Shown here: positions 22,012 through 48,700 of the stretch, piece by piece
How positions within the stretch are numbered: the stretch's first letter is position 1
Layout of the letters: every line of letters starts with the position of its first letter
Source: a virus
Taxonomy: Duplodnaviria; Caudoviricetes
IMG/VR virus record: IMGVR_UViG_3300030098_005510
Coordinates: 1-61,757 of that record
Direction: 5' to 3' (one strand)
Length of the DNA: 61,757 bases
Program-made: the position numbers and the translations under genes
The notes under the pieces: model-generated
Database searches by the model: none
Told to the model about the DNA's origin: nothing
Seen by the model: the letters and a program-made list of their open reading frames with translations, nothing else

Positions 22012-22701
22012 ATGGGAATTTTAGACAACGATACAGTAATAGTAGATGCCATTCTAACCAAGTTAGGTCGTCAGAAGTTAGCAAATGGTCAACCATTAGG
22101 TGTTACACAATACGCTTTTGGAGATACGGGTGTTGATTACACTCTTTATAATGCTTCACATCCAAGTGGTTCAGATTCATATGGAAATGCTATCACCTCT
22201 CTTCCAATGTTAGAAGCTGTACCAGATGACAATGTATTTTTAAGATTTAGATTATATGGAGAAGGTGAAAGGAATGTAGAAAACTTTTCCTTCATCACAG
22301 TAACAAGCGGAACTTCTGTTACAATAACAAAAGTGCCTGGTGAAACTGAGAGTAATCCTATTACAATAATCCCAAGAATTTTTCCCGTACCAGACTTTTC
22401 TCTATTTACTTTCAAAATTTTAGACGCTAGAGGATTAACTGTAAGAAGAGGAAGTGGAGCCGAAATGCCAGATGATGCGATTACTTTTTCTGGTGATTAC
22501 AGTCTTGATAATCTACCATCATTTTCAGTACCAGAGCCTGTTATTGCTACTGTTTTGGGAACTGGTATTAATCGTATCACTCTTAATGCTCAACCACAAC
22601 AAATAACTTCACCGAGAACTATCGGTGTTGAAATCACAGCACAAGGTGCTGCTTCGGCATTCGTAAGTGTAACAATTGATGCAAATAACACAACAGCATA
22701 G
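22012..22701 (+). CDS. Putative virion structural protein
   Basis: MGILDNDTVIVDAILTKLGRQKLA...FGDTGVDYTLY. AAGGA RBS. Tail context. Confidence 0.65.
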   Translation: MGILDNDTVIVDAILTKLGRQKLANGQPLGVTQYAFGDTGVDYTLYNASHPSGSDSYGNAITSLPMLEAVPDDNVFLRFRLYGEGERNVENFSFITVTSGTSVTITKVPGETESNPITIIPRIFPVPDFSLFTFKILDARGLTVRRGSGAEMPDDAITFSGDYSLDNLPSFSVPEPVIATVLGTGINRITLNAQPQQITSPRTIGVEITAQGAASAFVSVTIDANNTTA

Positions 22702-22711
22702 GATTTGAACC

Positions 22712-23776
22712 ATGATGAAAACATTTAATATAGCAGAAGATACTATAACAACACAGATTACTGTGACCAACGGATTTTTTGATGGTGGTGTTGGAACACT
22801 TGATGGTTCTAATTTAACAACCTCTTCGTTATCTGCTACACAGAAATCTTACTACTACAATCTACAATTTAACTCAAAAGACCATTTTAGTATAACCTAC
22901 GGTCACAAAGGTGGTAGTGGTTCAGCTGAAGAATCAGCAACTGTCGAAGGAACAACACAGGCAATATATAAACAATTTTTTAATTTTGTTGAACCAAATG
23001 CTGAAAATATAAGAGATGATGTTGGCTGGTCAATGATTGATGGAACTGATGGTACTAATGCTGTAACTCAAAATGATGTCTATATCTTGGCGGCTGAAAG
23101 ACTACAAATGAAAGACAGATTAAATCCTGGTACTTGGACAATTACCCTTTCAGGCTCTAATACTGTTGGTGTTGGTAAGAATTTAGAATTAACAGATGAT
23201 TCTAAAACTGTAAATGCGACATCTGTTCCATTCGGACCAAGACATAATATTGTATCTGGTTCTGCTGGAACTGTTAAGCTTGCTCACACCACTAAAACCT
23301 ACGGATTCTTTTATCCAGATGCTGGATTAATGGTATTTAGTGCTAATGCTCTTTCATCAAGTTTACCAGGTACTGTTGGATTTATACAAAGTGGAAGTTC
23401 TCATCCCACTGCTATAGGTGGTACTGGTTTAACATCAGATACTAGAGTTGCTGAGGCTGTTGACAATGCTCACAAATTAACACAAGCTATACAATTAGGT
23501 TCAACAACTCTTCGTTCGGAAGAACAACAATATATTTACGATTACTTTTGTAGAGCTAAGGCAACTGAGTTTAACTTATCTCAAAACTTAACTTTTTGGA
23601 GTGGTTCAACTTACGCTATCAGACATGATGATATGGTGAGTAATCCTCAAACTTTTATTAGTGAAGTTGGGTTGTATGATAATCAAAACTCACTTATGGC
23701 AGTAGGTAGATTAAGTTCACCGATAAATAAAAACTTTAGTTCTGAAGCAATCGTCAAGGTTCGCTTGACTTACTAA
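22712..23776 (+). CDS. Putative tail/baseplate structural protein
   Basis: C-terminal FISEVGLYD...LMAVGRLSSPINK motif, shared with the next gene. Confidence 0.65.
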   Translation: MMKTFNIAEDTITTQITVTNGFFDGGVGTLDGSNLTTSSLSATQKSYYYNLQFNSKDHFSITYGHKGGSGSAEESATVEGTTQAIYKQFFNFVEPNAENIRDDVGWSMIDGTDGTNAVTQNDVYILAAERLQMKDRLNPGTWTITLSGSNTVGVGKNLELTDDSKTVNATSVPFGPRHNIVSGSAGTVKLAHTTKTYGFFYPDAGLMVFSANALSSSLPGTVGFIQSGSSHPTAIGGTGLTSDTRVAEAVDNAHKLTQAIQLGSTTLRSEEQQYIYDYFCRAKATEFNLSQNLTFWSGSTYAIRHDDMVSNPQTFISEVGLYDNQNSLMAVGRLSSPINKNFSSEAIVKVRLTY

Positions 23777-30879: not shown

Positions 30880-31242
30880 ATGGTACATCTAAAAGACATA
30901 TTTCTAGAACTCATTGAAGATAATTCTTGCATTTACTGTGGTGAAATCGTTGATGAAAATTTAAGACAATGGTTTCAAAAAGGTGGTAAAGGTGGAACAA
31001 CTTCTGGTGGTTGGGATAGGTATGGTTCTGATGGACAAAAACTTGGAAAGTGTGGTGCAGGAAAAAAAGGTGGTGCTTATGCTGCTTGTTTGAGTGCCGA
31101 AAAAGCTCGTAAGCTTGGTAAAAAGGGAAGAGCATCTTTCGTAAGAAGAAAAAGAGCAGCTCAGAAAAAGGGTGGTGATGCGAAAAAAGGTGGTGAAAAA
31201 AGAAAAGCCCAAAAGTCAATCAAGGTTAAAACTGGTGCCTAA
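30880..31242 (+). CDS. Basic Gly/Lys-rich protein, putative internal head protein
   Basis: MVHLKDIFLE N-terminal signature, CxxC, highly basic. Confidence 0.65.
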   Translation: MVHLKDIFLELIEDNSCIYCGEIVDENLRQWFQKGGKGGTTSGGWDRYGSDGQKLGKCGAGKKGGAYAACLSAEKARKLGKKGRASFVRRKRAAQKKGGDAKKGGEKRKAQKSIKVKTGA

Positions 31243-32372
31243 TGTCTTTACCTTGTGGATACAAAAGTAATACCGAGACTGTAGCTCAGTATAGAAAGAG
31301 ATGTGGTCCTAGACCATTGGGTATGATAGGTAAGGTTCATGAAGGAGATGACAAGTTAGAGTTGATAAAGTTGTATAATAAAGCTCTCAAAATGATGCCT
31401 AACTCACCTGCACAAAAAAAGATAAGAAAACAGATTTCTGCTTTACGAAAAAAATTAAAAATGGATGAGGCACCAAGAAAACCTCGAAAGAAAGGTCAAC
31501 CAGCTGGTTCAAAAAAACACTCGGATTTATACACGGATGAAAATCCAAAGGGAACAATACACGGGCTAAAGTTTGCTACCGTAAAGGATGCTCAAAAGTC
31601 AGTCAGTAAAATAAAGGGTAGTGGAAAAACCCATGCTCATAAAATACAGGCAGCTATAGCTATGGAACAAAGAGCAAGGGCAGCTGGTAAGAAAAGTGCT
31701 GCTGGTGTGTATAGAAAATTTATTAACCAAATGAAAAAAAAGACTAAACAACGAAATGAAGGTTGGTCGGACAAATATAAGAAAAGTATCGACTGTAATA
31801 ACCCAAAAGGATTTAGTCAAAAAGCACATTGTGCTGGAAGAAAAAAACGAGAGAATAAGATGAGTTTAAAGTTAGAACAGTTAGTAGGAAAGGTTATTAC
31901 AGAAGAACAATTTGATGAGGCAGCTGGTAAGAAGGATGCTTGTTATCATAAGGTTAAAGCTCGTTACGATGTTTGGCCATCAGCATATGCTAGTGGTGCT
32001 CTCGTCAAATGTCGTAAAGTAGGTGCTAAAAATTGGGGTAATAAAAGTAAGAAAGAGTCTTATGATATATGGGCAGAAGATGGTTCATTTGGATATACAA
32101 TGACAGGTTTAGTTGAAGCTGAGTATCAAGGTCGTAAAGTAAAACTTAATAAACCAATGCAAGGTGATTCTAAAAAGTTCAAAGTTTATGTTAAAAATGA
32201 TAAGGGTAATGTGGTAAAGGTAAACTTTGGACAAGGCGGTGACGCTAAAGGTGGAACTATGAGAATTAGAAAATCTAATCCTAAGGCAAGAGCCAACTTT
32301 AGAGCAAGGCATAATTGCGATAATCCAGGACCAAAATACAAGGCCAGATATTGGAGTTGTAAAAAATGGTAA
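31242..32372 (+). CDS. Multi-module basic protein (putative internal head polyprotein)
   Basis: A string of short basic modules (SDLYTDENPKGTIHGL; SIDCNNPKGFSQKAHC; DACYHKVK...PSAYASG; FRARHNC...RYWSC) separated by Glu-ending linkers. Confidence 0.65.
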   Translation: MSLPCGYKSNTETVAQYRKRCGPRPLGMIGKVHEGDDKLELIKLYNKALKMMPNSPAQKKIRKQISALRKKLKMDEAPRKPRKKGQPAGSKKHSDLYTDENPKGTIHGLKFATVKDAQKSVSKIKGSGKTHAHKIQAAIAMEQRARAAGKKSAAGVYRKFINQMKKKTKQRNEGWSDKYKKSIDCNNPKGFSQKAHCAGRKKRENKMSLKLEQLVGKVITEEQFDEAAGKKDACYHKVKARYDVWPSAYASGALVKCRKVGAKNWGNKSKKESYDIWAEDGSFGYTMTGLVEAEYQGRKVKLNKPMQGDSKKFKVYVKNDKGNVVKVNFGQGGDAKGGTMRIRKSNPKARANFRARHNCDNPGPKYKARYWSCKKW

Positions 32373-33112
32373 AATTAAAAGACTTACTAACTGAAGGCGT
32401 TTTAGATCCTGGCATACTTAAAGCCGTATTTCTTGCTGGAGGACCTGGTAGTGGTAAAGGTTTTGTTGGAAGTGGATTATTTGGTATTCCAAAAAAAGTA
32501 AATGTATCAGCGTATGGCTTAAAACTTGTAAATCAAGATAAAGAATTAGTTCGTATGTTAAACAAGTATGGATTTGGTACAGACTTAGACGATATGCCAG
32601 AAGAACTATTTAGACAATTGACAGATCCTGATTACGAGGATTATAGTGGCTTACGAGGTAGGGCAAAAGAGTTGACTAGGGATAGACAAAAACTTTATAT
32701 GGAAGGTCGTTTGGGTATGATAATAGACGGTACAGGTCATAAGTTTGATAAGATACGAAAGAGAAAATTAGAATTAGAAGAAATAGGATATGATTGTTTT
32801 ATGGTATTTGTCCATACAGATTTAGAAGTAGCACAAAAAAGAAATATGGAAAGACCAAGAAAACTTAATCCTGAATTAGTAGAAGAATCTTGGAATGATG
32901 TTCAAAAAAATAAAATATACTTTCAAGGTCTTTTTGGAAATGCGAATTTTATGATGGTCGATAATTCAAATACCTTAAGTGAAAAACAAGCTACCAAAAA
33001 ATTTAATATGTTGGTTAAAAAGGGTATTGGTTCTTTTATCAAAAAACCAGTTAAAAACTATCGTGGTAAAAAATGGGTTGAAAGACAACTTATACTTAAA
33101 GGAATAAAATGA
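32366..33112 (+). CDS. P-loop kinase (zeta-toxin/AAA_33-like)
   Basis: AVFLAGGPGSGK Walker A, MIIDGT Walker B and RNMER lid. MVKLKDLLTE N-terminus. Confidence 0.8.
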   Translation: MVKLKDLLTEGVLDPGILKAVFLAGGPGSGKGFVGSGLFGIPKKVNVSAYGLKLVNQDKELVRMLNKYGFGTDLDDMPEELFRQLTDPDYEDYSGLRGRAKELTRDRQKLYMEGRLGMIIDGTGHKFDKIRKRKLELEEIGYDCFMVFVHTDLEVAQKRNMERPRKLNPELVEESWNDVQKNKIYFQGLFGNANFMMVDNSNTLSEKQATKKFNMLVKKGIGSFIKKPVKNYRGKKWVERQLILKGIK

Positions 33113-33567
33113 TTAAATTAAAAGATTTACTAAGAGAACAAGATGATTTTAAGGTCGATAAAAAACCTGAACATGAAATTCCATCTCATTTTGGAAGTGG
33201 TAAGGAAATAACTGTAAAGGGATATGAAACCAAACATTTTGACATATGTGCTTCAGCTGTAAGTTTATTTACTAAATTAGATAAAGTAGATAACGAAGAA
33301 GCAACAAAGTATATTGTCGAGGCTGCTAAAGGAATTGACCATATATTCGAGATGGAAAAGGCTGTTGTAAATAAAGAAGCATTAAATCACGATCCTATAA
33401 AACATGGTATTGAGATAACTAATACGGCATCTTTTCAATTAGGGTATGTAGCAAAATTAATTGATGATGATTTTATGGATGAAACACTATTCATACCAGA
33501 ACATATAATGGTAATGGTGGAAAGACAAGATGATATAAAAATAGATAAATCGTTGGATAAGGGGTAA
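33109..33567 (+). CDS. Hypothetical protein, putative internal head protein
   Basis: MIKLKDLLRE N-terminus. Confidence 0.7.
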   Translation: MIKLKDLLREQDDFKVDKKPEHEIPSHFGSGKEITVKGYETKHFDICASAVSLFTKLDKVDNEEATKYIVEAAKGIDHIFEMEKAVVNKEALNHDPIKHGIEITNTASFQLGYVAKLIDDDFMDETLFIPEHIMVMVERQDDIKIDKSLDKG

Positions 33568-33570
33568 AAG

Positions 33571-34074
33571 ATGATTAAGTTAATGAATTTAATATCTGAA
33601 CAACGGATAAACGAAGAGGCTGGTGTCTTCAAAAATAAGGATGCTGACAAGTATCTTAAAACACTCATGGATATGTTGGGTGAAGAAACATACAAAAGTG
33701 ATAAAGAGTATGGTTGGTATGATGTTACACTTAAAGATCCATACTATGTAAAAAATTTAGATAAGGTCTACATAATAGACGAGTCAATACCACATTCATT
33801 TCCAGCAGACCACAGAGATTTTTGTTACTCACAATATACTGTACCTGAGTGGAAACCAAAAGATGGACAACATACAATAGACACTCAGTTGTTTGAAGAT
33901 TTTGCCAAGGTGACAGGTTCAATTATCATAGATGGGTTGAAGGGAACTGTTACGGCTAGGTGTGGTGATTTGGTGGCAAATGATGTCACAATAAATTTTG
34001 TTCTTGATGTGGTGTCTGGTAAAATAGAACCATCAAGAGATGAATATAAAAAGAGAATATTAGCAACGAGGTAA
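33571..34074 (+). CDS. Hypothetical protein, putative internal head protein
   Basis: MIKLMNLISE N-terminus and DESIPH-x-x-P-x-x-H-x-D...TARC motifs. Confidence 0.7.
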   Translation: MIKLMNLISEQRINEEAGVFKNKDADKYLKTLMDMLGEETYKSDKEYGWYDVTLKDPYYVKNLDKVYIIDESIPHSFPADHRDFCYSQYTVPEWKPKDGQHTIDTQLFEDFAKVTGSIIIDGLKGTVTARCGDLVANDVTINFVLDVVSGKIEPSRDEYKKRILATR

Positions 34075-34076
34075 TT

Positions 34077-34397
34077 ATGGATAAATATAATAAATCAGTT
34101 CAACATCAATGATTTCACCACGCAACTTGGGGGTCCCCAAAGTATGAACATATGGGTGTTGGAAAAGTAACATGGCATTCACTCACAGAAGATGGTAAAG
34201 TAGAGAGAGTTCACATTAAATTTGGAAAAGAAGTGTATGAAAATGTAGATGTATCTCATTTAAAACCACTTAAAATTGAAGCTCATGGTCATCCAGCAGC
34301 TAAAGATGATGAAGAAAATCCAAAAAGAAAAAAGAACGCTCATAAGAAAAAAGTCAAAGAAGTAATTATCAAAGGTAAAAGATATAGAGCAATATGA
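34077..34397 (+). CDS. Candidate selenoprotein (106 aa, UGA at codon 12)
   Basis: GAGGT RBS and ATG 34077, in frame with track ORF 34152..34397 across a single TGA (34110-34112). Reads MDKYNKSVQHQ-U-FHHATWGSPKYEHMGVGKVTWHSL... Confidence 0.65.
34110..34148 (+). promoter_or_regulatory. Putative bacterial-type SECIS element
   Basis: ACTTGGG-GGTC-CCCAA(A)GT hairpin (34125-34143). The loop begins 19 nt after the UGA. Lower stem TTCA/TGAA. Confidence 0.6.
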
Positions 34398-34954
34398 TAA
34401 AGCTGTTAGATTTAATTAGTGAAAAAATTGTCTTGGATATTAAACCAGGAGATGTTATATTAGCTGGTAGATTCAAAAACAAAAAAGTTGTTGTCAAATC
34501 TATAGGAAAAGATGAACATGGTATGCCAACAATAAATGGAAAAAAGGTTGTGAATTTTAGAATATCACCAAAAAACGAAATAAAAGAAAGAGTTGATTTT
34601 TATGATACAGCAAAACAATTAGTCAAGAAAGCTGGACTAAAATCAAAGGTTGTTTTTGCGAAAAGAAAAGGTGTAAAGGCAGATTACAATGTAGATACCG
34701 ATACAATTTACATCAAACCAACATCAGATTTCAAAGATTTCTTAGTTACAGTTTTTCATGAACTTGACCACGCTTTAGATGCAAAAAAATTTGGAAAACA
34801 AAAGTATAAAGACAAGTATGAATTAGAGATGAACAAAGCAGTTGCTAGGGGTGGGGATGCACATGATGATAATTACTACGAAAAGAAAGCAGAAAAATTT
34901 GGTCGTAAGATGGCAAAGGACTATCTGAAGATTAATAGGAAAAATATTTATTAG
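34394..34954 (+). CDS. HExxH zinc-metallopeptidase-like protein, putative internal head protein
   Basis: VFHELDH...YEKKAE zincin pattern. MIKLLDLISE N-terminus. Confidence 0.65.
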   Translation: MIKLLDLISEKIVLDIKPGDVILAGRFKNKKVVVKSIGKDEHGMPTINGKKVVNFRISPKNEIKERVDFYDTAKQLVKKAGLKSKVVFAKRKGVKADYNVDTDTIYIKPTSDFKDFLVTVFHELDHALDAKKFGKQKYKDKYELEMNKAVARGGDAHDDNYYEKKAEKFGRKMAKDYLKINRKNIY

Positions 34955-35457
34955 TGAAAAAATTAGGTTTGGATGCCTCAACAACTACAGTAGGATATGC
35001 ATTTGTTGATGGCTCAGAAGTTATAGACATGGGATTCATACCCATTCAAAAAGAAAAGTCTATCAGAGATAAAGTTAAATTAACAATGGATATTGTTACA
35101 AATATAGATCCGTTTGAACATATTGATAAAATCAACATAGAAGATAGTCTTTCAGGTTTTATGCGTGGTAGAACATCACAACAAACAATAATAAAGTTAG
35201 CAAAGTTTAATGCTGTATTGACTTACTGTTTAGAATTTGCCTATGGTGAAATAATAGATGGTGTAAATCCCATGACAGCAAGAAAATACCTTTTTGGAAA
35301 AGCCAGAGTAAAAGGTGTATCAGCAAAAGATTTTGTAAAAAAAGAAATAAATTGCTTGTATAATTTAGAAGAATATGTTAAATTAACTAAGACAGGATTA
35401 TGGGATAAACGCAATATGGATGCCTACGACGCATTGGTGTGTGCCTTATATGAATAA
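34954..35457 (+). CDS. RuvC-like Holliday junction resolvase
   Basis: LGLDASTTTVGYA, NIED and D-x-x-DA acidic catalytic set. Confidence 0.82.
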   Translation: MKKLGLDASTTTVGYAFVDGSEVIDMGFIPIQKEKSIRDKVKLTMDIVTNIDPFEHIDKINIEDSLSGFMRGRTSQQTIIKLAKFNAVLTYCLEFAYGEIIDGVNPMTARKYLFGKARVKGVSAKDFVKKEINCLYNLEEYVKLTKTGLWDKRNMDAYDALVCALYE

Positions 35458-36364
35458 ATTAGTTTACTTATTAGAACGAACATTAAATAGTAGAAGTAAG
35501 AAACTAACGAAGCAAGATGAGTATATGTTTTACTCACCTTTCGTTAGTCATTACAAACCTAAATTACAAATCAACATTGTATCACAGAAGTGGCATTGTT
35601 GGGTTAGTAATCAAGGTGGTCATTCAATCTACTCACTATTTAAGAAGATAAATGTTGATAGTCGGTACTTTACTGAACTTAAGGATTTGGTATTTATACC
35701 ATCTAAGTCAGAAGATAAAACCGAATCTAAAATCATTGTATCTTTACCAAGAGAGTTTCTTCCACTTTGGACAATGAACAAATCTTTATATCGTAATCAA
35801 GCAAAATCGTTTCTACATAAAAGAGGTATAACCGATGTTGACATCAAAAAATACAAGATAGGATTTTGTGATTCTGGTTTATACGAGGGTAGAATAATAA
35901 TACCAAGTTATGATGACAAAGGATTACTAAATTATTTTGTTGGTCGTTCTTTTGTTGGTGAAAAAATGAAATACAAAAACCCAAATGTATCACGAGACAT
36001 CGTTCCATTTGATTGGTATATTGCTTGGTCAAAACCAATCGTGTTATGTGAGGGTGTGTTTGATGCTATGTCGATTAGGTCAAATGCCATACCGATGTTA
36101 AGTAAAAAACCATCAAAAAGTTTATTGAGAAAAATATTTGAAAAAAATGTCAAGACCATTTACATTGCTCTTGACGATGACGCTAAAAAAGATGCTTACA
36201 ATATGTCCGAGTTTTTAAGAGACTTTGGTATAGATTGTAAGGTAGTAAAGTTACCGACAGATAAAGACCCGAATGATTTGGGTTGGAAAAAGATTACCAC
36301 ATTAATACATTCAACCGAGTCAGCTAGTTTTAGTGACTCGATACAGGCAAGATTATATGGATAA
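35450..36364 (+). CDS. DNA primase (DnaG-type TOPRIM)
   Basis: FLHKRGI, GRIIIP, YFVGRS, KYKNP, LCEGVFDA, ALDDDA and KDPND. ATG 35450 (track start is 35420). Confidence 0.9.
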   Translation: MNKLVYLLERTLNSRSKKLTKQDEYMFYSPFVSHYKPKLQINIVSQKWHCWVSNQGGHSIYSLFKKINVDSRYFTELKDLVFIPSKSEDKTESKIIVSLPREFLPLWTMNKSLYRNQAKSFLHKRGITDVDIKKYKIGFCDSGLYEGRIIIPSYDDKGLLNYFVGRSFVGEKMKYKNPNVSRDIVPFDWYIAWSKPIVLCEGVFDAMSIRSNAIPMLSKKPSKSLLRKIFEKNVKTIYIALDDDAKKDAYNMSEFLRDFGIDCKVVKLPTDKDPNDLGWKKITTLIHSTESASFSDSIQARLYG

Positions 36365-39300
36365 GAAAATAAAGAAGATTGCTCATTTAGCAGATATTCA
36401 CATTAGAAAACTACATCGTTTTGTAGAGTACAGAGATGTGTTCAACAAACTATATAAAAAATTAGAGGAACTAAAACCTGATTTAATTTATATAGGCGGT
36501 GATGTTGTTCATGGAAAACTTGATACATCGCCAGAAGAAATTAGATTATTGGCAGATTTCTTTTTGAATCTAAGTAATATTTCTAAAACTATTATTATAA
36601 CTGGTAATCACGATTGTAACTTAAACAATAAATCAAGAGAAGATGTATTATCGCCAGTTGTCGATTTGGTTCAACAAATAAATCCTAATTTAATTTATTG
36701 GAAAGAAAGTGGTGTGTATGAATTAGGTGGGTGTCATTTTGGATTACTTTCTGTTTTTGACATTACAAAAGATAATAAACCAAATCTAAAAAATTTACCA
36801 CGAGCTAAAGACATCGAAGGTAAAAACAAAATAGCTCTTTATCATGGTTCAGTTGGTACATTTGAGGTAGATACTGGTTTAAAAATGAGTGATGACTTTG
36901 TTGGTGTCCAAGACTTTGATGGATATGATATGGTTCTTTTAGGTGACATACACAAAAGACAATTTTTAAATAAAGAAGAGACGATTGCTTATTGTGGTTC
37001 ACTTATACAACAGAACTTTGCTGAGTCACCAGAACACGGTTTTTTACTTTGGGACGTTGAAACAAGAAAGTCAGAGTTCATTCAAATAAAGAATGATTAT
37101 GGGTATAAAACCATTCGTGTAGAAGATGGTGATATAAAAAGTAAAATGAACTTTGTACCTCGTTTTGGAAATCTAAAAGTAAAACATCGTAATACACCTG
37201 TAGAACAACTTCGTTTGATTGAGATGGATTTACGAAAAAAATATACAGAAATAAAATCTGTAGCATTTGAAAAGATGGATTCAATTGAAAATAGATTAAA
37301 TGAATCCTCAACAAAAATATCCATCGAAGACATTCACGACTTAAAGGTTCAGAATGGATTGATAGAGAAAGTTGCTAGGTTAGAAAACCCAGCAATAGAC
37401 GATAAAACTTTACAAAGGTTATTCGACATAAACGAATTTACTAACTCATCCATTGGTATGAAAAACGATTTACCGCGAAATGTAGATTGGAAACTTAAGT
37501 ATATTGAGTTTGGTAATATGTTTAGTTATGGTAAAAGAAATAAGATAGACTTTACAAAGCTAAATGGAGTAGTAGGTGTTGTTGCACCCAATCATAGTGG
37601 TAAGTCAGCACTCATAGATATTATTGCTTACACAATATTTGATACTTGTAGCAGAACATTTAAAGCCATAGAAGTTCTAAATAACAAATCAAAAAACTTT
37701 GAGGTAAAATTATCTTTGGAGGTAAATGGTGTAGATTACATCATACATAGAACTGGCTTACTGAAAGAAAGACGAGTGAGAAAAACAGGTGAAATCAGAA
37801 GATTATGTCCTGTTGCCGTTAAGTTTTATGTAGAAGAAAATGGTGAGTTGATTGACCTTAGTGGAGCTGCTCGTAGTAACTCACAATATGGAACAGGTAC
37901 AAACGAAGAAATAAGAAAGATATTAGGAACATTTGATGACTTTATTCTTACATCACTTTCTCTACAGAATAACGGACAGAACTTTGTAGATAAGAAACAA
38001 AGTGAAAGAAAACAAATTCTATCTCAGTTTATGGGCATCGACCTATTTGATAAACTATATGATATTGCTCGTGAAGATGTGGCAGACGAAAAAGCTTATC
38101 TAAGACGAATAAAAGAAAAGAATGTTTTTGAGTCTATGGGTAGAATAGAACAGAAATTAAAAGACTTAAAAAAATCTAAGGTAGAGGTAGAAGAAAAGAT
38201 AGAGCCAGTAAAAAAAGACTTAAAAGATTTTAAATCACAAGTAGAAGAACTAAAGACAAAATTAAAAGATGTAGATGATATTAAGGAGCTCAACTTTGAT
38301 GAATTGATAAGTGAAAAAGAAAGTGAGTTGGAGTCACAAAAAGAAAATTTAAAAGTTGAAGAAGAATATAAAGATAATATTCGACCTCTTTATAACACCA
38401 TCTATAGTAAGCTAAAAGAATATGATGAAGAAACCTTAGACCATAATTATAAAAAGTTTCAAGAGTGTAAAGAAGACTTAAGTAAAATAAAATCTGATGT
38501 TACTGTAAAGGAAAACCAAATAAAACATTTAGAGGTATCTTTAGACGAAGTAAGAGAACATCAGTTTGATGAGGATTGTGAATATTGTGTTAAAAATAGT
38601 CAATGGCATATAGAAAAAATAAAATCATTGACAAGTGAAATAAAAGATTGTAAATTTCAGTTAGACAAAATACTAAATGATAAATATCATCGTGAAAAAG
38701 ACATCAAAAGTTTTGGTGATGTAGAACAAAATAAAGCAAAGTATGAAGAGTTGATGGAAGATTTAAAACGAGTTGAAGGTGATGCCTACAAAACACATGC
38801 GAAAATAAAAGAATTAGAACTTTCAGTAGAACAAACACAATCTAATTTAGAAAAGATTCAAAAAGACCAACAACTATTTTTAGATAATGCTTCAGCAATT
38901 GCTTACAATCGTAACATAATGCAAAAGGTAGATAAGTATCAAACTCAAGTTAAGATTGGTAGTGATATATTAGAAGAACTTGATAAGGAGTTGAAGAAAG
39001 TAGATTCAACTATTTTAATAGAGGAAACCAATCAAAAAAATCTTGGGGAAGAAATCAAAGACCTTGTAGAAGCAGAACAAAAGGTTGCTGATTATGAAGT
39101 CTATCTTCGTTTAGTAAGTCGTGATGGCATTCCTCAGTTAATTATAAATGATGCTCTACCAATAATCGAAAACGAAGTTAATGCAGTATTAGACCATATG
39201 ATGGCCGGTTTTCAGTTAGGTATTACAAATGAAGATAAAAACATAAATCTGTATATACGATATGACGACCAAGAATGGCCTTTAAATCTCTCATCCGGTA

Positions 39301-39797: not shown

Positions 39798-42700
39798 ATG
39801 CCAGAACTATATAGTCAGATATTAGACCTCAAAGAAAAAGATGTATTTCTCGAAACTGAAGTAAATGACTCACGATATTTTAGTGTCACTGGTTTACCAT
39901 CTAGGTTAAGTTATGGAAAACATCCTTTTTCAATAACATTTAATGATCCTGAAGGCCAACCACTTCTTAAAAATTTATCTAATATAGTTTTCGAATTTGT
40001 TGATTCTAATGATACTGTAATATTTTCTGATTTATTAGACATAGAAGAACTTAGTGGTGCTGGTAATGGTGTTTTATGGATAAAGAAAGATCCTCTAAGA
40101 ACAGCAGATGAAATATCTGATGGTCCTGTTTATCTTTATGTGATGGGTGAGTTGGATGGAGATGAAATACCAAATGAGTGGAAGGGGATATATAATGTAA
40201 GAAGTACATTTGTTTTTGATGCTAGAAAAGATTATCCTAATACTTCTAATCTTGTTTTAAAAAATCCATTAGGAATACAAACAAATCTAAATATATCAGA
40301 GAGTGTAGAGTTTGATACTGCTGATACTGTATTTAAAAGAAGTTTTATAAATGTGTCTCTGACCGACTTAGACACCGATGGTGGTAAAGTAGAATCTGTT
40401 GAGTTGGCATATAATGAAGAAAAAGCTCAAACAGATGATTATGAAATAATAACCACATATCCACTTACAAGTGGTTCATATGAGGTCACAGACATAACAA
40501 AAATATCTGGTCTAAATCCAATAACGAATACTACAAAGATATCAACACCTAAACAATTTAGACGAGACACATCGGTCAGATTCAGACTAAGATTTTTAAA
40601 TCCTGCTGGTGAATTTGCACAATATTTAGATGAAGATAGACAAGGTGAAATAGTAGAGGTCACTTCATCTTTTTTAACTTTCGAAAGCTCACCAACATTT
40701 ATAGAAAAAACTGACAATTTATTAACCGGTTCTTTTAGTGTTGGAGTTGATGTAGGAAAGGGATTTACATTTTCTGGTGCTAAATCAGCAGAGCTATCAA
40801 CTGTTGATTATCAAGGTTTCACAAGTGCATCTGCTGGTTCAGGTTCTGGTATACTTATGTTTTCTGGTTCTGTGAAAAGTGATGTGACAGATGATTATTC
40901 TTTAGGTGGTGTTGGATTAGAATTAGTTGCTGATAGCTCAAGTTTTTTTAGATTTAGAACAAATCCAAAAGAGTTGGATATAAGAGCTAATGCCTTTTTT
41001 ATTGGTTCAGAAACAAGTCAATTTATAAGCGGTTCAAGTGGCGATATAGAAATAAGTTCCTCTGTATTTCATTTAGATCCAGCTAATAGTTTGGTTTCAA
41101 TTAGTGGTAGTATTAATGCCACAGATGGTACTATTGGTGGTTGGAATATTGAAAATGATAAATTAGTAAATTTAGAAAATACTGTAGAGCTGAATAGCAC
41201 CACGCCTGGTTTAAATATAAAAGATGCTGGTGGTATAGATAGAGTAACGATTAAATCTGGATCTTTTTTAACAATAGGTGAAGGAACACAATACATTGGA
41301 AATAAAAGTTTCGAAGATGATACAATATCAGCTGGTAGAAACTTTGTTTCAAATATAACAAGTTGGTCTTTCTCTGAAGGCGGTGGTGTAAATATAAGTT
41401 TGACTGATAGAAGTTCTTTTCCTGACGATGAAAAAGCTGTAAGTGGTGATGTAACTTTGGATGTGGTAGTACCATCAGGTGGTAGCAACTATACCACTAA
41501 AAATAACTATGAATTAGTACAAGTTATAACGGCTTCTTTTAATGCGGGTGATACTCTTTCATTTAGTTCAGTAGCAAGATTTAGTTCATCATTTGGCGGT
41601 AAAGGAAAAGATAGAGCGTTAGGACCACAGTATTTTAGATTGGAATATAGTTCATCTACGTCAAATGGATTCAAATCGTTTTTACCAGCAAATGACTTTA
41701 CAGCTTCAAACGGCTACGGTGAATACTTTTTAGGAAGTGGTCAATATAATAGTTTTGGTGCATCAGCAGAGATGCCAGAAGCATCTGATTTTGTTCGAGT
41801 AATACTTACTGGTAGTATAAATGATGATACTGGTTACACAATTAAAAAACCTTTATTTGCGGAACGTAAAAGAAATAAAGATTTAGGCAATAAAATTTTT
41901 AGTAAAACAATTAAGGGAAGTGCTACAGCCGAGTTTCCTGAAACTGAGTTAAATTTTGATAATTTTTCTTTAAGAAGTAACACAAGAAAAGTTGAACTTA
42001 CTGAAAAGGGTTTATTAATTTATAACTCAGAAGATAGTTTCTTAAAAATGGATGCTAGTGGTATTGAGTTTAGGGGTGGTAGTGGTGTAACGACTTTTGG
42101 TCAATCAATAGCAAGAGAGACTTTTACAAACGATAGTGATGTTGCGGGTAGATTAGGAGCACCTGCATTACAAGCTTATCAATCAGATCCTGAGGATATC
42201 GGAACAACCGCATTTGATGGAAACGTAGGTGAATTTGCAAAAGGAAATCATAGACATAGAATAACATCTACGACAATAAATAATGTAATAAGTTCTTCAG
42301 TCTTGAATGTCGGCGGATTGATTTCAAGTGGTGATATTACGGCTGAAAACTTTATTGTTAAATCAACAGTTACACAAATTACACAATCATTCAGTAGTGG
42401 TTCTACAATATTCGGTGATTCTACTGATGATACTCACCAATTTACAGGATCTTTATTCGTAACAAGTTCAGCATTGACGATTGATAGTGCTGGTACTGTA
42501 AGTGGTTCATCAACCTCAACTGGTTCGTTTGGTGCTGGTAGATTTGCAGGAAAGGTTGGCATCGGCACCACAGGACCGTCTGCTGCTTTACATATATCAG
42601 AAACTAACGATGGTGGGGATACAGCAATAATCCTAAATAATAACGCAGGTGTTGGTTCTACAAATGAAACTGTGTCATTATTTTTTACACATACAGGTAT

Positions 42701-45700
42701 TGCTGGTGGTAAAATAGTATCTGGTAGGACTTTTAATTATTCTACTGTAGCTAACCGAGATAGTAATTTACAGTTTTTCACAACTCAGAATGCGACCGAC
42801 ACATTAGCTCTAACGCTTGATGCTGACCAGAATACAATATTTGCTGGGAATGCGAGTGGTTCATCAACATCAACTGCTTCATTTGGTGTTGTAAGAGCTG
42901 GTAATGGTATAAATAGATTTGGTAATTTATTAACTGATACTCATCAATTTACAGGTTCATTAGAAGTAACTGGTTCGTTTTTGGTAAATGGCGGTGGAGT
43001 CGCCACAACACCTGGTAGCGATAAAGAAGTTGTATTTAATGATGGTGGTTCATTAGGTTCTACATCTGCTTTTACTTTTGATAAAACCACAAATCATTTA
43101 TCAGCAAGTTTACCATCAACCGCATCATTTGGAAAAATATTACAAAATGGTCAAACACTTGCTTCTGTTGGTGGTGCTGATACAAATGTTCTTATAAATA
43201 CAGGAGGTGTAATATCAGGTTCAAATGAATTTGTTTATGACGACTCGACAAATAGGGTTGGCATCGGAGTAAGTCCTTCGTTTTTATTTCATGTTCAAAA
43301 ACAAGTGGATGGTGATTATGTTGGTTTCTTTAAAAATTCAGATTCGGATAATGGATTTGGTGTTGGGATTGATGCTGGTGATGATGCGAATGTAAGAGCT
43401 TTACAAATTAGAAATCATAATGGTAGTGCGGAGTCATTTATAGTAGATGGTGCTGGTAATGCTTTGTTTCCAAGAGCTAATGCAAAAATTAGTGGTTCAG
43501 CAACTTCGACAGGTTCGTTTGGTCAAGGACACTTCGATGGTAGGGTTGGGATTGGAATACAAACACCTGATATAGCTGCAACATCGTTAGACCATTTGGT
43601 TGTTGGAAAACCTGGAACTGGTGTTGCTATGAGTGGAACAAGTCATGTTGGAATTGTGATAGGTACTGGAACTTCTCATATTGGTAGGATTTCATTTCTC
43701 GATAGTCTATCAGCTTTTGGTGGCGCAATTGATTACCATCATGGTGCTGGTTCGGGTGGTGTTGATACCCTAAAATTTTACACAGACAATTATACACAGA
43801 GATTATGTTTAGAAGGTAATAAAATAAGTGGTTCATCAACCTCAACTGGTTCGTTTGCAAAATTAATAACAAAAAATGCAGATATCCAAGATTCTGCCGG
43901 AAACACCTTAATAGGATATGATCCTGGTGATATAGCAAGTGATGAGACAATCAATTTCAAAATAGGTGATGTGGATGGTGTTACTACTGGTGCTACATTA
44001 CAATTAGATGTAGTTAATACAGAAGTTATTTTAAATGACATGAAACTTATAATTCCTGAAACGATTGAACATCAGGGAGACGCGGATACAATTATAGCTT
44101 TTGCTAACGATAAAATAAGATTCAAAGCAGGAGTCGAAGGAGTCTCTCAAGACTTACTTCATCTTAGTGGTTCAAGAATAAGTGGTTCAGTTGCCTCAAC
44201 AGGTTCGTTCGGTAATTTAACTGTTGCGAAGGATTTGATGATGTCCAATGGTAAAGTTTTAAATTGGGGAACTTCTCATGGAACTCTCAGTTCAGCAATT
44301 GTTGGTAATTCAAGCACTAATGTTTTAGTATTTTATACGAATGGTTCTGAAAGAGCTAGATTTAACAGTTCAGGTAATTTAGGCATCGGCACTTCAAGTC
44401 CAGATGGGTTAGTACATGCCTTTAGTGGAAATGCATCTCAAACAGCAAATGCCGCTGCAAATCAACTTATTGCAGAAAATAACACAAATGCTGGTGTCTC
44501 TATTTTGTCAGGTACAAGTCATAGTGGTGCAATATATTTTGGAGATTCTGGTAATGCTAAAATAGGAACTATAATTTATGATCACGGAGATGAACAGTTA
44601 AGGATTGGAGTAAACGATGCTGTTATTTTAACATTAACGGATTCAAAAATAAGTGGTTCATCAACCTCAACTGGTTCATTTGGTGCTGGATTTTTTGATG
44701 GAAATGTTGGGGTAGGTATTGATCCTGATATGACAAGCTTCGATAGAGTATTGCATGTTGGTGGTACTAATACTGCTATAGTAAGATTTACTGGCACAAC
44801 CTATAGTGATACTGGTGGATATGTGGGTATGAACTTTGGTGGGGTGGATTTATTCAATCAAAGAAATAACTATTTGCGTTTTGGTACTAACAATACTGAA
44901 AGGATGAGAATTTCAAATGCTGGCAAAGTCGGCATCGGTGAATCACAACCAACTGTAGCCTTAGATGTTTCAGGTTCAGATAATCTATCGAGTAGAATTA
45001 GACTTGCTAAACATGCTAGTGGAACGAGTAAAATTTTACAACTTGGTGCTGATAGAGATACAACTGCAGTTCCATTCATAGGTGCTGAATCAAATCATGC
45101 CTTTGACATAATAACAAATAATACTCAACGAGTGCGTATAGATACTTCAGGTAATGTCGGCATCGGCACCACAAGTCCTTCTGATTACCATTCCCTAGCA
45201 AGTAATTTAGTTGTAGCTAGTTCGGGAGATACTGGTATAAGTCTTGTCTCTGGAACATCAAGTGATGGTAGAATATTTTTTGCAGATGGCACTAGCGGAG
45301 GTGATGAGTCAAGAGGTCACATTAGATATGACCATTCTGATAATAGTATGCATTTTGTTACCAATGATGCTGGTACTGCAATTAAAATAGACTCATCTGG
45401 TAATTCAGAGTTTCTGAGAGGAAACATAAGTGGTTCATCAACCTCAACGGGTTCGTTTGGAAGAGTTGATGCTCATAGCTTTCAAAATCCAAGTGGTTTA
45501 TTTTTAGGTAGCACAAACGCTGCACATGAGTTTAGTGAAATAACTTCTACCAATCATCTATTTATTGGAGCTGGTGCTTCAACAGTTCAAATGCAAAATG
45601 ATTTAATTCCTGATGGTGATGGAAGTCAAAACTTAGGTTCATCCAACAGAAATTTTAATCAAATTTTTGCTAAAGCAAAAGTTACTGGTTCATCAACTTC

Positions 45701-48700
45701 AACTGGTTCTTTTGGCTCGGTTGTAGCCGGTGGTGTTGGAGTAAATAGTTTTTCATCTAATGTTGGTGTTGGTTTAACTAGTCCTGAAACCATTCTTCAT
45801 ATCAGAGGAGCAGGTGATAAGTTTAGAGTTGATGCAAGTGATGGAACTCAAATTTTACAAATCCAAGAGTTTACAGGTAAGATAGCTGACATTATTGGAC
45901 CTGGTAATAAAGCCCTCAGAATTAATCACAATAGTAGTGGAGATGTTTTTATAGGAACAGGTGGTGGTAGTGTAATGTTAGGAAATACTGTTGCCAATCC
46001 AGCATCAGGTTTTTCTAATCAAAAAGGATTTGGCTTCAATGGTAGTACAGGACAAGTTCAGATAGCATCAAGTACAAATACTGCGGCATTGCAAATTGGA
46101 AAAAATCAAGGCACTGCTGGTGACCTCGTTATTTTTAGACACGAAAGTGTTTCGGTTGGTGCTATTGATACTGCTGGTGGAATAAGTGGTTCATCATCTT
46201 CAACTGGTTCGTTTGGTAAATTATTTATCGGTAATCAATCATTAACCAACACCGGAAATAGTGAGGTACAGTTTAGTCAAAATATTCAGTTGAGAGACGG
46301 TTTTGAATTACAAAATTCACTTGGGTTTAATATAGTTCGTCACGAGATAGATGCTTCTGACTCAGGTGAGGACTTAATTCTATTTGGTACAGACGATTCT
46401 CCAAACACCGATATTTTATTTATGACACCTGGTAATGCTGAGCTTCTATTATTAGAAAATGCTGGGAGTGCAAGATTTTATGGAGATGTCCGATTTACAA
46501 AAGCTAATGCAAAAATAAGTGGTTCATCAACCTCAACTGGTTCGTTTGGTAGAGTTGAAGCCACAACGATTACAGCACCTACTCTTGCTGGGAATACAAT
46601 AATTGATGGTAATTTAAGGACAATAGGTGATATAACTGCAGAAAACTTTATTGTGTCTTCTTCTGTAACAAGTATTACATATCAGTCTCTAAGTGGTTCA
46701 ACTGTTTTTGGTGATTCCTCTGATGACATACATCAATTTACTGGTTCGTTAATGGTATCAGCTTCTGGTCTGATAGGTATTGGCACAAACAACCCACAAA
46801 ATCCAATCCACATTAGAGGTACAGACGCTTTTATGTCATTTACTCATGAGACTAATGGTGCTCAAGCAGGTATTCTATATAGAAATACAAGTGGAACAAA
46901 TGTTGGTTTTGCTGCCTATAATTTTTCAAGTAACGTATGGCAAGTCAGAACTAATAATAATCTTGCTCTTACCCTTGACTCGGCTCAAGATGCTACCTTT
47001 GCCGGTCATATTGCTTTAGCCGCTACTAAAGGTATTTTCTTTGATGGTGGAAGTCATACTTCCATAGCTGAGTCATCTGGTGATAATTTAAGATTTCAAG
47101 TTGGTAATTCAAATGTGTTGGACATTACAACGACAAAAATAAGTGGTTCATTCACTTCAACTGGTTCATTTGGTCATTTAATAACAACTAACAACATCAT
47201 AATGAAAAATGAATTGGGTGCGCCTCATAATATGTTTGAATTTCATGATAAAAATGTTGCTATTCAAAGAGCACAAGGAGCTGATAGATCCAATACTGGA
47301 AACAGTCTATATCTTCATGCTTTTGAAGATATAATATTTACAGCACAAGGCACTACGGCAGCTAGTCAAACTGAAAGGATGCGTATAACTGAAGAAGGTG
47401 ATGTCGGCATCGGCACAGAAAGTCCTACAGCTCTTTTACATTTAGAAGCTGGTTCTGATAATGCAACTGGTGGTATTAGGTTCACTAATGACGACACAGG
47501 TGGTTCAACTGCTACCGATGGAACTGCTTTATTTTTAGAACAAAACACTACAGATTTCTTTATTAGAAATTATGAGAATGCTGGTATAAGATTAAGAACA
47601 AATGATACTGATGCTCTCTATATAAGTAGCGGTCAAAAAGTCGGTATCGGCACCACAAGTCCTGGTTCATTACTCACAATAAAAGATACTGGTGACATAT
47701 CGACCTCTACATTCATATCAGGTATAAGTGGTGATGGATTCAGAATAAAAGACAACGGTTCTGATGGTGTTAGTATGGAAATCGACAACATCACAGTTCG
47801 TAACACATTAAGAACTCATATATTCCAAAAAGATGTTGTTAGAGCTACAAATGGTATTTTATTTATATCAGATAGTGGTGTTATATCAGGCTCTACTGGA
47901 ACTACAAGTAGTGGTACAGTTACGTTTGACAATACCAAATCTGCTACTTTTTCTGATAATGATATACTGCTTTTCAAAGATGCTTCAGATGATGGTACGA
48001 TAAATGCCGTACAATTTCAAATAAATGGAAGCGTAAGTACGGCAGGAGATTTTGATACATACAATGTAGACAATGTAGTAGGTAATTTATCAAACCTGAA
48101 TACTGGCGGTACAGCAGCTAGGATAAGTGGTGGTACAGTAACAATAGACGCTTCATCACCTAATAGTCCTTTCGTAGATGTCAATGAGGCTAGTGGTTCA
48201 CCTGTAGTTAGAATGGGTAATTTAGCTGGAATTACATCTCCTCGATTTGGTGTAAATGATGAGTTTGGATTTTGGGCATCAGGCTCTGCTTATTTAGAAG
48301 GTGCTATAAATGCTAAGACAGGTAACATCGGTGGATGGGGAATAGGAGAAACTGCTATAAGTAGTTCAGGCGATAGTGTTATAATAGATGCTCTTACAAA
48401 AAGAATTACAGTTTCAGATGGTAGTAATGCTAGACTTTTCTTAGGTGAAGTTGATGGAGATGGTTCATCTTTTCCTGGCTCACCACAATTTGGAATAAAA
48501 ATATTTAATGGAAGTGGTGTCGCTGATGGAAATAGATTAGTTGAATTAGGTGAAGGTGCCAATATGATTGCGGGTTGGGATTTACTACCTGGTTCAATAA
48601 AATCAGATACCCAAGATGGAAGTGTAGCTTTGAGTTCTGTATCACAGTCATTAACGATTTGGACTGGTAGTATAAATCACGCTGAACCAAAACTTGTTTT

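Follow-up and report, generated by a model that had tools for sequence, protein, structure and literature searches.

A probable phage-encoded selenoprotein with a bacterial-type SECIS-like hairpin and its relatives in uncultured marine phages

The question raised by this locus is whether an in-frame UGA at codon 12 of a short phage gene is translated as selenocysteine (Sec). The gene is located in IMG/VR virus record IMGVR_UViG_3300030098_005510 (Duplodnaviria; Caudoviricetes), and the window referred to below is the whole stretch of DNA analyzed, 61,757 nucleotides (positions 1 to 61,757 of that record). An earlier note on this DNA had proposed a phage-encoded selenoprotein with a bacterial-type selenocysteine insertion sequence (SECIS). 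This proposal was supported by a conserved UGA, by distant homologues in which Cys takes the place of the UGA and by a hairpin that accompanies only the UGA forms. On these sequence comparisons, we assign a probability of roughly 0.8 to the gene at 34077-34397 encoding a selenoprotein of 106 residues.

The window is about 34% complete (CheckV) with a G+C content of about 33%, and essentially all of its genes are on the + strand. The gene and its elements are arranged as follows:

34068-34072, + strand: Shine-Dalgarno-like (SD-like) sequence GAGGT, overlapping the TAA stop of the upstream gene (34072-34074), about 4-5 nt before ATG 34077
34077-34397, + strand: recoded coding sequence (CDS) of 106 codons plus terminal TGA; predicted product MDKYNKSVQHQ-U-FHHATWG..., with Sec as residue 12
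34110-34112, + strand: in-frame UGA, the proposed Sec codon (codon 12), after 11 codons from ATG 34077
34104-34121, + strand: H-x-U-x-H-H motif (His10, Sec12, His14, His15); superfamily consensus H-x-[C/U]-x-x-H
34125-34143, + strand: SECIS-like hairpin in the CDS, stem ACUUGGG / CCCAA(A)GU, beginning 12 nt past the UGA
34132-34135, + strand: apical loop GGUC of the hairpin, +23 to +26 counted from the U of UGA
34176-34178, + strand: invariant His34 (alignment column) in the core W-H-S-L-T-E-D-G
34284-34292, + strand: invariant His70-x-His72 (alignment columns)
34395-34400, + strand: terminal TGA (34395-34397), which overlaps the ATG of the next gene at 34394, and an in-frame TAA directly after it

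The elements described in the earlier note were all present in the sequence, namely the ribosome-binding site GAGGT with ATG 34077 after the upstream stop, the single in-frame TGA (34110-34112) joining the open reading frame (ORF) called at 34152, and the hairpin ACTTGGG-GGTC-CCCAA(A)GT with the same geometry, its loop at 23-26 from the U of UGA. Past the TGA at 34110-34112, the frame runs via FHHATWGSPKYEH into the ORF that translation table 11 starts at ATG 34152. The lack of a clear ribosome-binding site for this second start held as well, with no SD-like sequence at a normal distance before ATG 34152 in the window. In several relatives the frame continues for 4-5 codons beyond the C-terminal TGA, unlike the window, where TAA follows immediately.

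Conservation of the UGA codon and its Cys counterparts

Protein-pattern scans that ignored codon 12 identified 24 viral loci (from 51 pattern-matching stretches). The metagenome set comprised the best 80 of 146 relatives. One locus came from a genome collection. One metagenome locus (L056), in which the motif was not found, was dropped, and the window, the 24 viral loci and the other 79 of the 80 metagenome loci made up 104 placed loci. Codon 12 was TGA in all of them (104/104). The next base was U in 103 loci (TGAT), and a single locus had TGAA. A DNA pattern over codons 14-19 only, which is blind to codon 12, matched 34 viral-contig stretches; 33 were family members and displayed TGA without exception (33/33). 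L125 was rejected as a family member, being a chance match to the DNA pattern in a different reading frame. No DNA copy examined from the window's own group (subfamily 1) or from the more distant subfamilies 2 and 3 had TGG at this codon.

Contigs from four sequencing runs of four studies, compared as assembled contigs and not as raw reads, had no variant letter at 34110-34112 and 25 variable places elsewhere in 601 bases. The idea that the gene is broken, or that codon 12 results from faulty sequencing or assembly, has nothing in its favor except the stop itself. Against it stand the same TGA in >130 independent contigs, the invariance among contigs of the four runs and purifying selection on both sides of the codon, and the chance of such an error is practically negligible.

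The codons on both sides of the TGA, 2-8 and 13-16, varied synonymously among 67 distinct sequences (e.g. TTT 43 / TTC 23 and CAC 40 / CAT 27), indicating that both sides are translated. The leader was preceded in all relatives by an SD sequence with ATG (GAGG/AGGAG/AAGGAG) or by an ATG extension lying upstream in the same frame. L001/L002, the closest relative with about 92% protein identity, likewise carries the TGA. There, AGT AAA replaces CAT ATG of the window (H-M to S-K), and the Met of 34152 is absent. The intervening changes are mostly synonymous. The H-M-G of the window is replaced by K-N-E-G or K-S-E-G in most relatives, which leaves no in-frame start past the TGA. Translation must therefore run through it. 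Under the earlier note, a start of all homologues at the Met of 34152 would refute the proposal; most of them have neither a Met nor another start there.

These observations also bear on the gene model of table 11, which calls the window, likewise 12 of 70 database proteins described below, from the second start. The locus would then consist of a separate 11-codon leader ORF, a hairpin of regulatory function and, from ATG 34152, a gene for 81 aa. Under this model L001 would retain just a 50-aa ORF from a far-downstream GTG, and most relatives would have no Met or other in-frame start. Moreover, the protein sequence of residues 13-25 is conserved while their codons change synonymously, no SD precedes 34152, and the TGA lies deep inside the ORF in subfamilies 2 and 3. 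A separate leader is therefore extremely unlikely. Translational bypass of the T4 gene 60 type was ruled out, because the protein sequence encoded directly after the UGA, in an unchanged frame, is conserved.

Distant relatives were obtained in an exhaustive profile search with alignment A2, which returned 97 proteins at E <= 1e-3. Those covering position 12 have H-x-[C or W]-x-x-H in common. Subfamily 2 (..IIGHT-U-LTHVKRKDSALNE..) has TGA in 19 loci, where about 45 codons precede the UGA in an ORF that begins MKITRRQL..., and subfamily 3 (..HK-U-MKEGRLSS..) has TGA in 9 loci, giving 28 TGA loci for both. The Cys-type loci were 80 kept out of 223 relatives in viral contigs. The codon was TGT (67) or TGC (13) in 79 of these 80 loci and TGA in none; L274 has two copies, and L249, the 80th locus, ends at the contig edge before position 12. 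Cys was also found at the UGA-aligned position of 13 database proteins. In alignment A9 (69 rows), position 12 was W, standing for TGA, in 29 rows and C in 16. The invariant columns of this alignment were H10 (45/45), H15 (46/47), G29, H34 and L36 (69/69 each), and H70 and H72 (67/68 each). UGA and Cys align at the same position within the invariant H-x-[C/U]-x-x-H motif. The earlier note had turned on codon 12 of the homologues being TGA or Cys and not Trp; it is TGA in every DNA copy examined from subfamilies 1 to 3, never TGG, and Cys in the Cys-type homologues.

The Cys form matched 269 cultured-phage records, all from Synechococcus or Prochlorococcus phages or cyanophages except two labelled 'Marine'. 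The same collection had no match for the window region 33000-36400, the 106-aa protein or the subfamily 2 protein P0153, and no TGA form was found in it. Cyanobacteria are not known to use Sec. These genes form a marine-phage superfamily, with Cys in the cyanophage members and UGA plus a SECIS-like hairpin in at least three uncultured lineages.

The codon is hidden in protein databases. A word-based search returned 70 database proteins, in which position 12 was W in 57 and R in one (P0023), and the other 12 started after the TGA. The W is TGA read by the gene caller under a code-4 model, not TGG. Several of the W proteins also display W at the C-terminal TGA stop, such as P0004 ending ...YRPVW, because the terminal TGA was read through in the code-4 calls. 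The code-4 model is the one picked for short low-GC contigs (database proteins P0004-P0073). Public protein sets thus mask the codon as W (57/70) or shorten the gene (12/70), and such genes would be systematically missed.

The W calls could also be taken at face value, as general decoding of TGA as a sense codon in the phage or in the late-infection host, through code 4/25 or a suppressor tRNA from the part of the genome beyond the window (34% complete). Only about one third of the genome is in the window, so that such a tRNA could lie elsewhere. However, TGA is an ordinary stop in the window, as the earlier note had stated. A greedy longest-ORF script gave 49 genes on the + strand, of which 35 end with TAA, 7 with TAG and 7 with TGA (including 1638, 33112 and 34397). 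Five of the seven TGA stops sit in 4-nt overlaps (ATGA/TTGA) with the next start. The + strand was also scanned for TGAs preceded by 8 or more open codons from an in-frame start and followed by 40 or more open codons. Among the four TGAs obtained, only that at 34110 has a downstream hairpin (-6.5 vs -0.3 to -1.0 kcal/mol), and it is the only in-frame TGA with coding sequence on both sides in 61.7 kb. ARAGORN detected no tRNA in the window, and none was found in five related viral records. Four larger records of subfamilies 2 and 3 encode tRNAs for Leu, Met, Lys, Arg, Asn and Thr. None of these records, nor the window, has a tRNA with a UCA anticodon. A suppressor tRNA, moreover, would need no hairpin specific to this codon. 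General decoding of TGA is accordingly very unlikely.

The hairpin downstream of the UGA

In the window alone, the 71-nt stretch 34100-34170 folded like its shuffled versions (z = -0.12; 87/200 shuffles as stable). With no folding signal in the single sequence, the claim of a hairpin depends on comparison only. The folding energy was computed on +10 to +42 of every distinct sequence, with the following results:

Subfamily 1 (n=58): mean -8.41 kcal/mol; loops GGUCU 39, GGA 12, GGUC 3, GGUCA 2 and GGGAU 2, at +23 to +27
Subfamily 2 (n=16): mean -8.93 kcal/mol; loops GGA 12, GGG 2 and GUC 2, at +24 to +26
Subfamily 3 (n=7): mean -8.61 kcal/mol; loops AGUU 6 and AGUC 1, at +22 to +25
Cys forms (n=53): mean -2.72 kcal/mol; no common hairpin, 2% at -6 or below

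The first two bases of the loop include a G in 81/81 distinct TGA-type sequences of the three subfamilies, and all loops fall within +22 to +27. The apical loop of the window's relatives is mostly GGUCU at +23 to +27. Within subfamily 1, G-G-U occupied +23 to +25 in 44/58 distinct sequences, and GGA or GGGAU was found in the other 14.

The helices were compared with controls in which the pairing partner was slid. For the 7-bp helix of subfamily 1, 94.1% of cells were paired (56 distinct 60-nt rows) vs 16-58% with the partner slid, and RNAalifold independently predicted the same helix. For subfamily 2, 96.5% of cells in the helix were paired and 3 pairs (4 cells) had changed on both sides; for subfamily 3, the values were 93.9% and 2 pairs (6 cells). 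In the slid-partner controls for the helices of the subfamilies, 16-60% were paired. The stems are unlike in sequence, being CUUGGG/CCCAAG in subfamily 1, AGCGGAA/UUCUGCU in subfamily 2 and AAGCUG/CAGCUU in subfamily 3. What is conserved is the structure rather than the sequence, and the hairpin is present only with TGA. The earlier note had expected the hairpin to be kept only in TGA-bearing homologues, and this was the outcome, with -8.4 to -8.9 kcal/mol against -2.7 kcal/mol in the Cys forms and with compensatory changes.

Codon usage in the stem pointed in the same direction. Among distinct sequences, Thr17 was ACT in 66/66, Gly19 was GGG in 67/67 and Tyr23 was TAT in 56/56, and the TGG codon was invariant as well. 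Other Gly columns used GGG in just 0, 1, 6 and 0 of 67 sequences. The invariant ACT and GGG codons of the stem reflect a constraint at the RNA level.

The arrangement is that of bacterial selenoprotein genes, of which fdhF of E. coli is the prototype: an in-frame UGA, a stem-loop inside the CDS about 12 nt downstream and aligned Cys homologues. The fdhF SECIS has the loop AGGUCU with G23/U24, a bulged U17 and an 11-nt spacer. The loop GGUC(U) of the window resembles AGGUCU with an offset of about 1 nt. No bulged U comparable to U17 of fdhF was seen in the stem. SelB specificities differ between bacteria. A consensus for bacterial SECIS (bSECIS) elements is that of Zhang and Gladyshev (2005), as cited in PMC2398784 and PMC5029168. 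The UGA forms of all three subfamilies agree with such a consensus in their stable hairpin directly 3' of the UGA and in the G of its apical loop, set at a constant spacing.

Decoding of the UGA and the host

Translation of this gene as a selenoprotein would proceed as in bacteria. Ribosomes would start at ATG 34077. With the UGA of codon 12 in their A site, the hairpin at 34125-34143, which begins 12 nt further on, would lie immediately beyond the mRNA channel. SelB-GTP-Sec-tRNA(Sec) of the host would bind the G-rich apical loop and deliver selenocysteine. The hairpin would then be melted by the ribosome and read as T-W-G-S-P-K. We infer that insertion of Sec would depend on SelB and that the host would be Sec-competent. 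No Sec machinery was found on the phage records searched, and decoding must therefore use that of the host.

Several results weigh against this reading. In subfamily 1, double-sided changes are limited to 2 pairs and come from one divergent sequence, L025. Rfam gave nothing at gathering score in the window, and in 34040-34240 there was no SECIS match at E <= 10, with only chance-level non-SECIS matches. According to the available portion of one preprint, Rfam represents bacterial SECIS elements poorly (10.64898/2026.04.03.716425). On five large records of subfamilies 2 and 3, one of them 100% complete, neither a tRNA-Sec over the cut-off nor selD was found; the long-arm tRNAs on large records of these subfamilies are tRNA-Leu(UAA). 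One database protein (P0023) has Arg at codon 12; it is known from the protein alone and is 86% identical to P0025.

The remaining points concern the host. Neither the motifs detected in window genes, which were only SLT, cNMP-binding, gp25-like and pilin, nor the nearest cultured phages, Microcystis phage Mel-JY01 and Flavobacterium phage immuto, with 31-35% identity, suffice to identify a host. There is a single hint, a relative (L107) on a 71.9-kb contig (G001:C6, L289-L292, 71,886 bases) binned into the metagenome-assembled genome (MAG) of Ca. Pelagibacter sp. TMED166. This contig is syntenic with the window: 24/64 of its ORFs have window homologues, and 62/64 are on one strand. The whole contig is phage, and its place in the bin is either contamination or a hint of the host. 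The TMED166 MAG has no SelB over the cut-off and its best tRNA-Sec matches are tRNA-Ser. SelA was over the cut-off in 0/151 genomes of the family of TMED166. Actinomarina has a G+C content similar to that of Pelagibacter. As given in the available portion of the same preprint, 135 complete Pelagibacter genomes are without selC, and Actinomarina has the full Sec machinery (10.64898/2026.04.03.716425). The Pelagibacter binning link is likely spurious; otherwise, the codon is decoded without SelB. It is mainly because of this bin without Sec machinery that our confidence in the Sec reading stops at the value given above.

Decoding without SelB would be a programmed readthrough of the UGA, with ribosomes stalled or remodelled by the hairpin and the codon read by a near-cognate tRNA (Trp, Cys or Arg). 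It would allow expression where the host has no Sec machinery, as in Pelagibacter, and it would agree with the same-lineage contig in a MAG without SelB and tRNA-Sec, with SelA over the cut-off in none of the 151 genomes of that family and with the Arg of P0023. UGA is also the leakiest stop in bacteria. On the other side, the position is Cys in 79/80 Cys-type loci within the invariant H-x-C-x-x-H, where Trp or Arg would be chemically implausible, and TGG occurs in no DNA copy. The base after the UGA is U in 103/104 loci, and a U there is a strong termination context in E. coli. We know of no established case in which a hairpin stimulates readthrough in bacteria. The binning link itself is weak, the contig being phage-like throughout. 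Readthrough independent of SelB is thus an unlikely explanation.

Returning to selenocysteine, we consider it likely, with slightly less confidence than for the single gene, that phages make genuine selenoproteins via the SelB and tRNA(Sec) of their hosts and a bacterial-type SECIS. The phage-specific domain exists in at least three UGA lineages beside the Cys forms of cyanophages, and the UGA together with the hairpin would mark uncultured phages of Sec-decoding hosts. The protein may be a metal or redox factor packaged in the capsid. If these phages do make selenoproteins, marine phages of an abundant group would rely on the selenium metabolism of their hosts to produce a conserved protein, and the Sec/Cys state of one codon could act as a culture-free marker of a host trait. 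It would also offer a new His/Sec site open to biochemistry.

We found no report of a bacteriophage selenoprotein in the literature. The word 'phage' has 0 occurrences in the main text of PMC2398784 and in the available portions of the BSepDB, deep-Sep and 2022 review papers. Selenoprotein families are described as having few or no viral sequences in GOS (PMC9402790, in part). The only viral selenoproteins named in the available portion of PMC1802603 are the poxvirus glutathione peroxidases, with GPx1 of Molluscum contagiosum and GPx4 of fowlpox. They are likewise virus-encoded and use host machinery, and the fowlpox SECIS is inside the ORF. They differ in belonging to a eukaryotic virus, in having an SBP2-type SECIS and in being a known enzyme captured from the animal host (PMC1802603), whereas the family of the window is phage-specific with a bacterial-type signal. 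GOS_A (2 Sec / 155 Cys) and GOS_B (11 Sec / 125 Cys) are unnamed marine selenoprotein families (PMC2398784). By their description in the available portion of that paper they are alike in being marine and metagenomic, in lacking an assigned function and a conserved domain, in the large number of their Cys homologues and in a hairpin of the bSECIS type; the likeness is one of description (PMC2398784). Compared with bacterial selenoprotein genes in general, the gene of the window differs in its location in a viral genome instead of that of the cell with selA/B/C/D, and in having no Pfam family. Phages with TAG or TGA reassigned genome-wide and with suppressor tRNAs were reportedly described by Borges and colleagues in 2022. 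Such stop-recoded phages likewise have ORFs through a standard stop; here, one codon in one gene is concerned, TGA is otherwise a stop, there is a dedicated hairpin and no suppressor tRNA was found.

Protein family and gene neighbourhood

The window protein (P0002) matched phrog_764 with an E of 8.8e-5 over profile positions 62-146, and a fragment from cyanophage S-RIM12 (P0168) matched it with 1e-60. The window protein has both the motif H-x-[C/U]-x-x-H...H[ST]L-x-E-x-G...H-x-H and the match to the phrog_764 profile. Pfam had no family for the Sec/Cys domain. In S-RIM12, the domain is the N-terminal part of gp062 (YP_009779152.1, 482 aa; L280 3010-4458), which lies just upstream of the head genes. 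The cyanophage phrog_764 proteins such as gp062 have in common with the window protein the domain H-x-C-x-x-[HKL]...H[ST][LM]-x-E-D-G-x-V...H-x-H and occur in marine phages of about 170-180 kb. They differ in having Cys (TGT/TGC), no hairpin, a much longer protein and Synechococcus/Prochlorococcus hosts.

The protein gp062 is labelled 'hypothetical protein' in GenBank and 'cytidyltransferase' in RefSeq. Its neighbour gp063 (L280 1824-2981), also a 'cytidyltransferase' in RefSeq, matches the Pfam cytidylyltransferase domain. Since Pfam finds nothing in gp062 and matches only gp063, the label of gp062 is doubtful. The name 'cytidyltransferase' of phrog_764 is doubtful as well and has probably spread from the neighbour gene gp063.

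AlphaFold2 on the 69-row alignment gave a beta-rich model with a predicted local distance difference test score (pLDDT) of 74.4. Foldseek against PDB returned no match at E <= 0.001, and the weak rows were SH3/Tudor/PsaE/NdhS-like barrels. The model suggests a small beta-rich domain that is weakly SH3-like. H-x-U-x-x-H together with H34, H70 and H72 would most simply be read as a metal-binding or redox site, and the invariant His columns agree with the His-rich metal or redox site suggested in the earlier note.

Window genes at 32366, 33109, 33571 and 34394 begin with MIKLKDLL, MIKLMNLISE or MIKLLDLISE, and the same type of start occurs at 168, 878, 1271 and 4349 of L107. Distant TGA-type and Cys-type homologues, such as P0153 and P0143 of subfamily 2, begin with MKITRRQLRQIIQEE and similar sequences. 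By this N-terminal signature, the Sec domain belongs among the MIKL-type proteins, the copy of the window being without the signature. Fusions of the Sec domain with a module ...NVPTNPSKWSYYKSQAKKKFDVYPSAYANAWAAKQYKAAGGGW... are found in other phages (P0019, P0022, P0024, P0059; L107 3133-3459). A related module (DVWPSAYASGALVKCRKVGAKNWG) is found in the C-terminal part of a separate window gene, 31242-32372. The fused and the separate module point to domain shuffling within the gene cluster.

Two giant ORFs of the window, 39798-51752 (3984 aa) and 51752-58453 (2233 aa), come after an SbcC-like gene, and the contig binned with TMED166 (G001:C6) has a 4084-aa counterpart. A Popeye/cNMP-binding membrane protein (Pfam POPDC1-3, cNMP_binding) is encoded at 1635-2285 of the window and at 22625-23278 of that contig, 70% identical and at a different place in the genome.

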